Source: a virus
Taxonomy: Duplodnaviria > Heunggongvirae > Uroviricota > Caudoviricetes
Virus record (IMG/VR): IMGVR_UViG_2563366850_000002
DNA length: 3,198 nt
Direction: 5' to 3' (one strand)
This document shows positions 1 through 3,198 of this stretch, one piece after another; position 1 is the first letter of the stretch, and the number at the start of each line of letters is the position of its first letter. The notes beneath the pieces are model-generated. The model was not told where the DNA came from. It worked only from the letters and a program-made list of their open reading frames with translations, and made no database searches. The translations under genes were made by a program, and so were the position numbers.

Positions 1-351
1 ACCGTCGCCCCCGCCCGTCTGCGTGAGGCCATCAAGTCAGGCATGGCGGAGACGAATGCGGAGCTGTACGAGTACCGCGAACAGAAAATTGCCGCCGGTT
101 TTACGCGTCTGGCGGACGTCCCGGCGGACGACATCGACGGTGAAAGCATCAAGGTTTTTTACTACGAGCGCGCCGTGTGTGCGATGGCGACCGCGTCGCT
201 TTATGAGCGTTACCGCGGCGTGGATGCCAGTGCGAAAGGCGACAAGAAGGCCGACAGCATTGACAGCACCATTGATGAACTGTGGCGGGATATGCGCTGG
301 GCGGTGGCGCGTATCCAGGACAAGCCGCGCTGCATCGTGAGTCAAATCTGA
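1..351 (+). CDS. L: Head completion/stabilisation protein gpL (P2-like), C-terminal ~116 codons plus stop; 5' end lies outside the window start and the N-terminal part is at 3015..3198
   Basis: Frame 1 is open from position 1 and reads TVAPARLREAIKSGMAETNAELYEYREQKIAAGFTRLADVPADDIDGESIKVFYYERAVCAMATASLYERYRGVDASAKGDKKADSIDSTIDELWRDMRWAVARIQDKPRCIVSQI, ending at TGA 349..351. This matches my recollection of the P2 gpL C-terminus. The stop overlaps the next start by 1 nt (TGATG), as expected for adjacent phage late genes. Confidence 0.85.
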   Translation, partial: TVAPARLREAIKSGMAETNAELYEYREQKIAAGFTRLADVPADDIDGESIKVFYYERAVCAMATASLYERYRGVDASAKGDKKADSIDSTIDELWRDMRWAVARIQDKPRCIVSQI

Positions 352-554
352 TGAAGACCTTTGCGCTACAGGGCGACACGCTCGACGCCATTTGTGTCCG
401 GTATTACGGGCGCACTGAGGGCGTGGTCGAGACTGTGCTCGCCGCAAATCCGGGACTGGCTGAACTGGGTGCGGTGCTGCCGCACGGCACCGCCGTCGAA
501 CTGCCCGACGTTCAGACCGCGCCCGTGGCTGAAACTGTCAATCTGTGGGAGTAA
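351..554 (+). CDS. X: Tail protein X (P2 gpX-like, small LysM-like protein), 67 aa, apparently intact
   Basis: ATG at 351..353 and TAA at 552..554. The translation MKTFALQGDTLDAICVRYYGRTEGVVETVLAANPGLAELGAVLPHGTAVELPDVQTAPVAETVNLWE matches recalled P2 gpX in length and sequence. Native L-X-Y order is preserved. Confidence 0.85.
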   Translation: MKTFALQGDTLDAICVRYYGRTEGVVETVLAANPGLAELGAVLPHGTAVELPDVQTAPVAETVNLWE

Positions 555-557
555 CGC

Positions 558-842
558 ATGACAGCAGAAGAAAAAAGCGTCCTGTCGCTTTTCGTGATTG
601 GGGTGCTGATTGTTGTCGGCAAGGTGCTTGCCGGTGGTGAACCCATCACCCCGCGTCTGTTTATCGGGCGCATGTTGCTCGGTGGTTTTGTCTCGATGGT
701 TGCCGGTGTTGTTCTGGTGCAGTTTCCTGACCTGTCACTGCCTGCGGTGTGCGGCATCGGCTCCATGCTGGGTATCGCCGGTTATCAGGTGATTGAGATT
801 GCCATTCAGCGCCGCTTTAAGGGCAGGGGGAAGCGGAATTAA
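558..842 (+). CDS. Y: Holin (P2 gpY-like), 94 codons; the last 2-3 codons may derive from the junction with the V fragment
   Basis: ATG at 558 is preceded by GGGAG about 7 nt upstream. The translation MTAEEKSVLSLFVIGVLIVVGKVLAGGEPITPRLFIGRMLLGGFVSMVAGVVLVQFPDLSLPAVCGIGSMLGIAGYQVIEIAIQRRFKGRGKRN has hydrophobic transmembrane segments and a basic C-terminus, and matches recalled P2 holin gpY. TAA at 840..842. Confidence 0.85.
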   Translation: MTAEEKSVLSLFVIGVLIVVGKVLAGGEPITPRLFIGRMLLGGFVSMVAGVVLVQFPDLSLPAVCGIGSMLGIAGYQVIEIAIQRRFKGRGKRN

Positions 843-2753: not shown

Positions 2754-2905
2754 CGTTCCCGAAAAATCTGTCGGTCGATGACCTGATGGCGGATGTGGCA
2801 GTGATATTTCACTGGCCGCCATCAGAACTGTATCCCATGAGCCTGACCGAACTCATCACATGGCGCGAAAAGGCGCTCCGGCGAAGCGGAAACACGAATG
2901 AGTAA
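2478..2905 (+). CDS. E': gpE+E' (P2-like), made by programmed -1 ribosomal frameshift at 2726..2732; extension ends at TAA 2903..2905 (about 142 aa total)
   Basis: The slippery heptamer T_TTT_TTG sits in the E frame near the E 3' end. The -1 frame downstream is open and reads VAELGAVTFPKNLSVDDLMADVAVIFHWPPSELYPMSLTELITWREKALRRSGNTNE*, matching the recalled P2 E' C-terminus. Confidence 0.8.
2726..2732 (+). promoter_or_regulatory. Programmed -1 frameshift slippery sequence (TTTTTTG) for E to E+E' recoding
   Basis: The heptamer T TTT TTG is in the X_XXY_YYZ register relative to the E frame (codons TTT 2727..2729, TTG 2730..2732), with an extended open -1 frame downstream. Recoding at this kind of site in P2-like E/E' and lambda G/GT is established knowledge. 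Confidence 0.75.
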
Positions 2906-3014
2906 CAATGTAAAATTACCGAATGCGCCCCGCGCCAGGGCGGCACGCCGGTCAGTGAGGGTGAATCACCTGACACTGCACCGGCGTCCACCGCCCGACT
3001 TTTCAGAGGTGGTC

Positions 3015-3198
3015 ATGATGACGCTGATTATTCCGCGAAAGGAGGCTCCCGTGTCCGGTGAGGGTACGGTGGTCATCCCGCAACCGGCAGGCGACGAGCC
3101 GGTGATTAAAAACACGTTCTTTTTTCCCGATATCGACCCGAAGCGCGTCCGGGAACGTATGCGCCTTGAGCAGACCGTCGCCCCCGCCCGTCTGCGTG
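3015..3198 (+). CDS. L: Head completion/stabilisation protein gpL, N-terminal 61 codons; continues beyond the window end and is in frame with 1..351
   Basis: ATGATG at 3015 is preceded by GAGGTGG 4 nt upstream. The translation MMTLIIPRKEAPVSGEGTVVIPQPAGDEPVIKNTFFFPDIDPKRVRERMRLEQTVAPARLR matches the recalled P2 gpL N-terminus. The last 25 nt are identical to window positions 1..25 and the frames agree. Confidence 0.85.
   Translation, partial: MMTLIIPRKEAPVSGEGTVVIPQPAGDEPVIKNTFFFPDIDPKRVRERMRLEQTVAPARLR
3174..3198 (+). repeat. Terminal 25-nt identity with window positions 1..25 (ACCGTCGCCCCCGCCCGTCTGCGTG), consistent with circular or tandem-unit topology with a 3173-bp unit
   Basis: Direct comparison of the window ends. 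Joining them reconstitutes a 510-nt (169 aa plus stop) gpL ORF, the expected size for P2 gpL. Confidence 0.9.

Follow-up and report, generated by a model that had tools for sequence, protein, structure and literature searches.

Tandem duplications and amplifications that have short junctions and that internal deletions later remodel have reportedly been described in enterobacterial chromosomes by the Roth and Andersson laboratories, and tandem duplications in P2 genomes are said to have been seen by electron microscopy in the 1970s by Chattoraj and Inman and in the Bertani laboratory. The locus studied here, from the draft genome of Escherichia coli KTE156, resembles both. With the chromosomal amplifications it shares head-to-tail joints with zero to a few nucleotides of microhomology, shortening deletions, nested duplications and direct orientation, but the KTE156 unit shows no gene apparently under selection and its joint is known from assembly alone. 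With the duplications of the 1970s it shares a direct duplication inside a P2 genome; those, however, were selected in phage stocks and were unsequenced, whereas the KTE156 unit is prophage DNA with disabling deletions of essential tail genes. A third point of comparison is the cyclic contig that arises from collapsed repeats, which likewise has overlapping ends, scaffold gaps and a neighbour contig that shares one end and then diverges. Collapse explains the cyclic shape of our contig but not its four non-homologous joints. Relative to the P2-like (Peduovirus) prophages (NC_001895, NC_049461 and NZ_CP104114.1), the block sequences are the same and the differences are in adjacency at these four joints.

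We call the window the whole 3,198-nt stretch of DNA that was analysed. Within it, the interval between genes E' and L (positions 2906–3014) marks the closure of a cyclic KTE156 draft contig of 3,173 nt; it is a unique rearrangement joint or a mis-join in the draft assembly of an ordinary P2-like prophage. At about even odds (a probability of roughly 0.5), we read it as a genuine head-to-tail duplication joint in a P2-like prophage at pflA/pflB, belonging either to an array or to an intact copy together with a remodelled short copy, which was collapsed into a cycle during assembly.

Structure of the Cyclic Contig

The window consists of P2 late genes only, all 3,173 nt mapping to late structural or lysis genes, and its positions 1–25 are identical to 3174–3198, which makes it formally circular. 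It is built of five P2-collinear blocks in a single orientation, 97–100% identical to P2 (NC_001895), to R18C (NC_049461) and to L007, an intact prophage between pflA and pflB. The canonical P2 order (M-L-X-Y-K...S, V-W-J-I-H-G, FI-FII-E-E'-T-U-D) is broken in the window by four non-native joints, with genome order kept except at two back-joints, and the scaffold as a whole preserves the outer order P..N-M...T-U-D-ogr. By BLAST, with all blocks on the plus strand, window positions 1–832 (the middle of L, X, and Y almost to its stop) correspond to R18C 6154–6985; 828–1564 (the 3' part of V, W and the first ~104 nt of J) to 10557–11293; 1554–2088 (the 3' part of FII and the 5' part of E) to 18753–19287; 2084–2124 (J again) to 11253–11293; 2114–2919 (the 3' end of FII, E, E' and the first 22 nt of T), collinearly, to 18753–19558; and 2918–3198 (the M-L spacer and the 5' end of L), with 100% identity, to 5898–6178.

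The called genes matched the Pfam families Phage_GPL, Phage_tail_X, Phage_holin_3_2, GPW_gp25, Phage_tube and Phage_TAC_7, and all lie on the plus strand. The head completion gene L (P2 6000–6509) begins in 3015–3198, continues at window position 26 and ends at 351; its 3' part, placed by R18C and P2 mapping, occupies 1–351, of which bases 1–25 close the cycle, and both pieces match Phage_GPL. There follow an intact X (tail protein X; 351–554; Phage_tail_X); Y', a 94-aa holin with a chimeric C-terminus (558–842); a 3' fragment of V (833–1104; R18C 10562–10833); an intact W (baseplate wedge; 1101–1448; GPW_gp25); the 5' 104 nt of J (1453–1556); a first copy of the 3' fragment of the tail tube gene FII (1557–1861; Phage_tube); and a first copy of the 5' fragment of E (1918–2088), which ends at the E/J back-joint at 2087–2088. 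The second copy of a 560-nt tandem duplication then occupies 2087–2646, the first being 1527–2086. By P2 annotation, E itself is intact (2478–2753), and E+E' (2478–2905) is read through a -1 frameshift at the T6G run near 2725–2733, corresponding to the P2-annotated frameshift site 19685. A terminator-like stem and T-run at 2705–2733 coincides with this slippery site and is not a terminator.

With L007 as the parent, the microhomologies are 'AA' at the Y/V joint, 'TTA' at J/FII, 'CG' at E/J and 'AC' at the joint between T and the M-L spacer (T/M-L); the 'TTA' of J/FII sits inside an imperfect 12-nt match. Y/V and J/FII are of the deletion type, joining upstream to downstream sequence. About 3.6 kb (K-lysA-lysB-R-S-orf30 and the 5' part of V) are absent at Y/V (831–832), and about 7.5 kb (the 3' part of J, I-H-G-FI and the 5' part of FII) at J/FII (1554–1556), so that the two together remove the endolysin, the spanins, R, S, the tail fibre, the sheath and half of the tube gene. 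E/J and T/M-L are back-joints, running from downstream to upstream sequence.

The 560-nt unit repeats J nt 75–104, the J/FII joint, the 3' part of FII and the 5' part of E. As it contains the J/FII joint, the duplication arose after the J/FII deletion. Each copy carries one private SNP, at 2070 and at 2346, positions where L007 and a second draft assembly described below share the ancestral base. The SNP at 2070 is a G>C change that replaces Lys by Asn in the truncated E, 17 nt before the E/J joint. Private SNPs in both copies imply that the sample held at least two distinguishable copies of the FII'-E segment.

The Interval between E' and L

The preliminary description had put the E' stop at 2905 and the L start with its Shine–Dalgarno sequence at 3015, with 109 nt between them, and both the list of open reading frames and the mapping to P2 agree. 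E' (ORF 2786–2905) ends with TAA at 2903–2905, and L starts at 3015 with ATGATG, matching P2 L position 6000 and preceded by a GAGG Shine–Dalgarno sequence at 3005–3008, 6 nt 5' of the start. It had also expected a novel junction within the 109 nt between the E'/T and M/L boundaries, to be located by aligning both boundaries to a P2 reference. A three-way alignment with L007 placed the breakpoint at 2918/2919: the two parents share just the 'AC' at 2918–2919, and the ends of the BLAST blocks, at 2919 and 2918, flank it. The string across the joint is ATTACCGAATG.

The left parent contributes the first 22 nt of T (2898–2919; R18C 19537–19558, P2 19850–19871, and L007 up to 29123), in which, as in P2, the ATG at 2898 overlaps the TAA of E'. 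The right parent starts 3 nt past the M stop TAA, and the native 95-nt M-L intergenic spacer, beginning 3–5 nt past that stop, occupies 2920–3014 and is 100% identical to R18C 5900–5994. The interval is made of T nt 9–22 and this complete spacer; M coding sequence is absent, and the 3' end of the gene natively upstream of L, which had been expected here, is not part of it. The TGA at 2956–2958, previously proposed as the end of a reading frame, does exist but is not a gene end, as it lies inside the native spacer and in neither the M nor the L frame. P2-like phages natively carry the E'/T overlap ATGAGTAA, the slippery site of E/E+E', the L start and the M-L spacer, and this spacer and L form one collinear stretch in 135 of 135 matching phage records and in ~1,570 E. 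coli genomes.

What is not native is the adjacency. The joint connects R18C position 19558 with 5898 on the plus strand; it is head to tail and leads from downstream to upstream sequence. Given the identity of positions 1–25 and 3174–3198, it closes a 3,173-nt cycle rather than bordering a large deletion. The preliminary description had instead seen a P2 element reduced by loss of T, U, D and the early and capsid genes, with L directly after E/E'. The joint is indeed novel and those genes are missing from the contig, but T, U, D and the capsid genes are not missing from the genome: in the loci examined, which stop short of the early region, T, U, D, ogr, N, the 5' part of M and P are found on the same scaffold beside the contig. 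With a cyclic window and a back-joint in place of a deletion joint, such an element is highly improbable.

M, the spacer and L natively lie in a single frame, with the M TAA as the sole interruption. Owing to this common frame, the start codon of T is now in frame with L; it also explains why some records, R18C among them, annotate L from an upstream GTG. From the T start the sequence reads through the spacer into L as a 208-aa fusion ORF (2898–3198, then 26–351) made up of T' (7 aa), spacer (32 aa) and L. The joint leaves L with the ribosome-binding site and ATG that it natively has, and probably has no functional consequence.

A consensus scan found no sigma-70-like promoters in the window, and Rfam gave no match for the interval at E <= 1. 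Each terminator-like hit of the window lies within coding sequence, and the stem and T-run of the E/E' frameshift account for two. With no promoter-like site and with these hits in coding sequence, we dropped a regulatory reading of the interval.

Hairpin of the Native M-L Spacer

The M-L spacer contains a GC-rich imperfect hairpin at 2938–2996 on the plus strand, with a minimum free energy of -51.5 kcal/mol and a z score of -4.4. No variation occurs in its arms, GGGCGGCACGCCGGTC and ACCGGCGTCCACCGCCC, among the P2-like, Klebsiella/Enterobacter and 186-like (Eganvirus) phages of alignment A1, while the genes flanking it are only ~70% identical between P2-like and 186-like phages. In a covariation check the stems never varied and so gave no covariation signal, and only one pair of a small hairpin was compensatory. 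The loop length varies by non-multiples of 3, so the element is non-coding; with no conserved U-run behind its stem, it is not a conserved intrinsic terminator either. Rfam holds no family for the hairpin. It belongs to the P2 phage family and not to the junction, and is possibly the more interesting of the two.

Scaffold Context in KTE156

The window is 100% identical to a contig (L003 8549–11746) in the 3.24-Mb scaffold KB733421.1 of E. coli KTE156 (GCA_000351965.1), the proteins of which are ELF21248-53. On this scaffold, gaps of 6,695 Ns upstream and 4,290 Ns downstream separate the contig from its neighbours. Upstream of the 6,695-N gap lie P, a gap over O, N and the first 359 nt of M. 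Downstream of the 4,290-N gap, the scaffold restarts with 149 nt identical to window 2771–2919 and then enters native T, with T (815 aa), U, D and ogr following in native order. The T-side native parent of the joint is thus present in KTE156 (L003 16037 onward), and the parent with the M stop and spacer falls in the 6,695-N gap.

An overlap of the next contig with 2771–2919, followed by native T, is the branch expected at a duplication joint, and self-overlapping ends together with scaffold breaks inside L, seen in both this and the second draft, are as collapsed direct repeats give. That the M-side parental boundary lies outside the KTE156 assembly counts against a duplication. The same layout, a contig N-gapped on both sides whose ends overlap by 25 nt and whose successor repeats 149 nt before running natively, would also be left by an assembly or library artefact. 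The prophage at pflA/pflB would then be intact, and the back-joints, perhaps all four joints, would not be chromosomal; proposed sources are chimeric molecules (such as the circularisation junctions of a ~3-kb mate-pair library), gap patching and cross-sample carry-over, the products of which would have been threaded into a cyclic contig. As a whole, an artefact of this kind is the main alternative, possible but less probable than a duplication.

Distances on the scaffold speak for the artefact. From the 5' end of M to E' the KTE156 scaffold spans 14,184 nt, and the intact span is 13,894 nt in R18C, 14,208 nt in P2 and 13,225 nt in L007; one short copy would give ~3.4 kb and an intact plus a short copy ~17 kb. 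The observed span best matches an intact prophage and so counts against a duplication, but the estimate for the O gap in KB733421.1 is off by ~600 nt. The O gene and P-O promoter region is represented by 905 Ns in KTE156 and by 1,513 nt in L007. Further gaps in the KTE156 prophage cover unique sequence (L005 271–1175 and 2749–9443), and M breaks after nt 359. Assembly breaks in unique sequence (O and the 3' half of M) indicate poor quality in this region, which again suits an artefact and weighs against a duplication. The poor assembly of the prophage may reflect a second related prophage or heterogeneous DNA.

A Second Draft Assembly

An exact look-up of the chimeric ORFs from Y/V and J/FII in NCBI assemblies identified two drafts, KTE156 and GCA_000408785.1. 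In the latter, scaffold KE137287.1 (L004) begins within L, at window position 154, and is gap-free through E, E', T, U, D and ogr into pflB, focA and ycaO. It has the same Y/V and J/FII joints and lacks both the 560-nt duplication and the T/M-L joint. The two shared joints are base-for-base common to the drafts (window 831–832 and 1554–1556; L004 675–679 and 1401–1403). The exact chimeric Y' protein and the 57-aa J/FII fusion ORF are found only in KTE156 and GCA_000408785.1, and the 62-aa E/J fusion ORF in KTE156 only.

Across the entire 2.6-kb unit no difference separates the drafts, but in T-U-D (L008 15572–20189 vs. L004 2058–6675) 10 of 4,618 positions do not match. The differences fall into five clusters, the first lying 62 nt beyond the breakpoint, and KTE156 carries the L007 allele at all ten. 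At the rate of the T-U-D flank, ~5.7 differences would be expected in the 2.6-kb unit, and none was seen. An identical unit beside a differing T-U-D flank behaves as a discrete shared entity. The recurrence of Y/V and J/FII in an independent draft supports real DNA, and two joints reproduced base for base in a second assembly with differing T-U-D flanks argue against an artefact.

A shared unit beside differing resident T-U-D sequences, overlapping contig ends that make the contig formally circular, and scaffold distances that suit an intact resident prophage plus an extra unit are also what an extrachromosomal circle would show. Homologous recombination within a tandem array could have released such a circle of 2.6–3.2 kb, or it could be a defective mini-derivative of the phage. 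Every base of it, however, belongs to P2 late structural or lysis genes; as it lacks a replication gene, cos and the P2 ori, located in gene A, it would be neither replicated nor packaged. It has no promoter-like site, and the second draft has the unit running straight on into T-U-D-ogr and host genes. An extrachromosomal circle is accordingly unlikely, and a small plasmid or a complete phage was rejected, there being no ori, rep or cos. A more elaborate idea is that the unit (spacer-L-X-Y'V'-W-J'FII'-E-E'-T') is a discrete P2-derived mini-element, present in identical form in two E. coli isolates with differing prophage flanks as a circle or a mobile tandem unit beside an intact helper prophage, that would act as a defective-interfering-like parasite, with the spacer hairpin perhaps serving as a cis-acting site; we give this very little credence.

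Searches for the Joints in Other Sequences

When the window and its joints were compared by BLAST with phage records, plasmids and complete E. coli genomes, the only matches were the separate parental blocks. The two sides of T/M-L occurred together in 0 of 50,697 phage records, 0 of 5,426 complete E. coli genomes and 0 of 72,556 plasmids; the preliminary description had named a relative collinear across 2906–3014 as the finding that would speak against it, and these collections held none. The exact 31-mer over T/M-L had no match in viral, genome or metagenome contigs. Exact strings of 29–33 nt over T/M-L and J/FII were likewise absent from viral, genome and metagenome contigs, and those over Y/V and E/J from viral contigs, the only collection searched for these two. 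None of the four joints was present in the 135 phage records or the 5,426 complete E. coli genomes, Y/V and J/FII each giving 0 of 5,426, and the exact chimeric proteins had no record among the Logan assemblies. Among the collections searched, the back-joints E/J and T/M-L are confined to this contig.

Intact counterparts were readily found. The P2-like D-ogr-pflB junction is present in 398 of the 5,426 complete E. coli genomes, and the closest genome examined, NZ_CP104114.1, carries a full-length P2-like prophage between pflA and pflB to which all window blocks map at 98.2–99.9%. The intact state of this closest prophage, with Y/V or J/FII in none of the complete genomes, counts against a duplication, as does the restriction of the back-joints to one contig. 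Back-joints seen in a single record, four joints missing from all complete genomes and chimeric proteins without a Logan record are, conversely, in line with an artefact. A literature search returned nothing usable on KTE156, P2 tandem duplications, the M-L stem-loop or ALLPATHS artefacts.

Origin of the Joint

The length of the homologies bears on how the joints could have formed. Mis-threading in a de Bruijn graph takes parents that share at least k-1 bases at the joint, and at all four joints they share 2–3 nt. From so short a match no k-mer graph could create the joints, so that reads must span them, and an artefact of graph mis-threading fails on this point. Homologies of 2–3 nt are instead typical of illegitimate recombination or template switching.

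Chimeric molecules from the library are a different matter. A back-joint has the topology of a circularised fragment, and the cycle length of 2.6–3.2 kb would, if the library was of the mate-pair type, be within the usual insert range. However, random chimeric molecules are each unique and should miss assembly coverage, and the 560-nt back-joint is far under the mate-pair insert size.

In the duplication reading that we prefer, illegitimate recombination would have fused T nt 22 to an upstream base, just past the M stop. The rearranged prophage copy, located between pflA and pflB, would also have the deletions Y/V and J/FII and the nested 560-nt duplication at E/J. The rearranged unit would then share blocks of 0.7–1.1 kb with itself or with an intact copy, and a short-read assembler would have collapsed these repeats into a cycle and set the cycle between gaps.

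Discussion

The contig described here calls for caution in reading viral sequence collections. A short, self-overlapping contig made entirely of phage sequence can mimic a tiny complete "circular viral genome" or a radically reduced phage; behind such a look-alike there may be an ordinary prophage, a piece of which was collapsed or wrongly joined in the draft. The joint itself carries little biological weight. If real, it would add a single clinical isolate to the cases in which duplication and deletion through microhomology erode a prophage.
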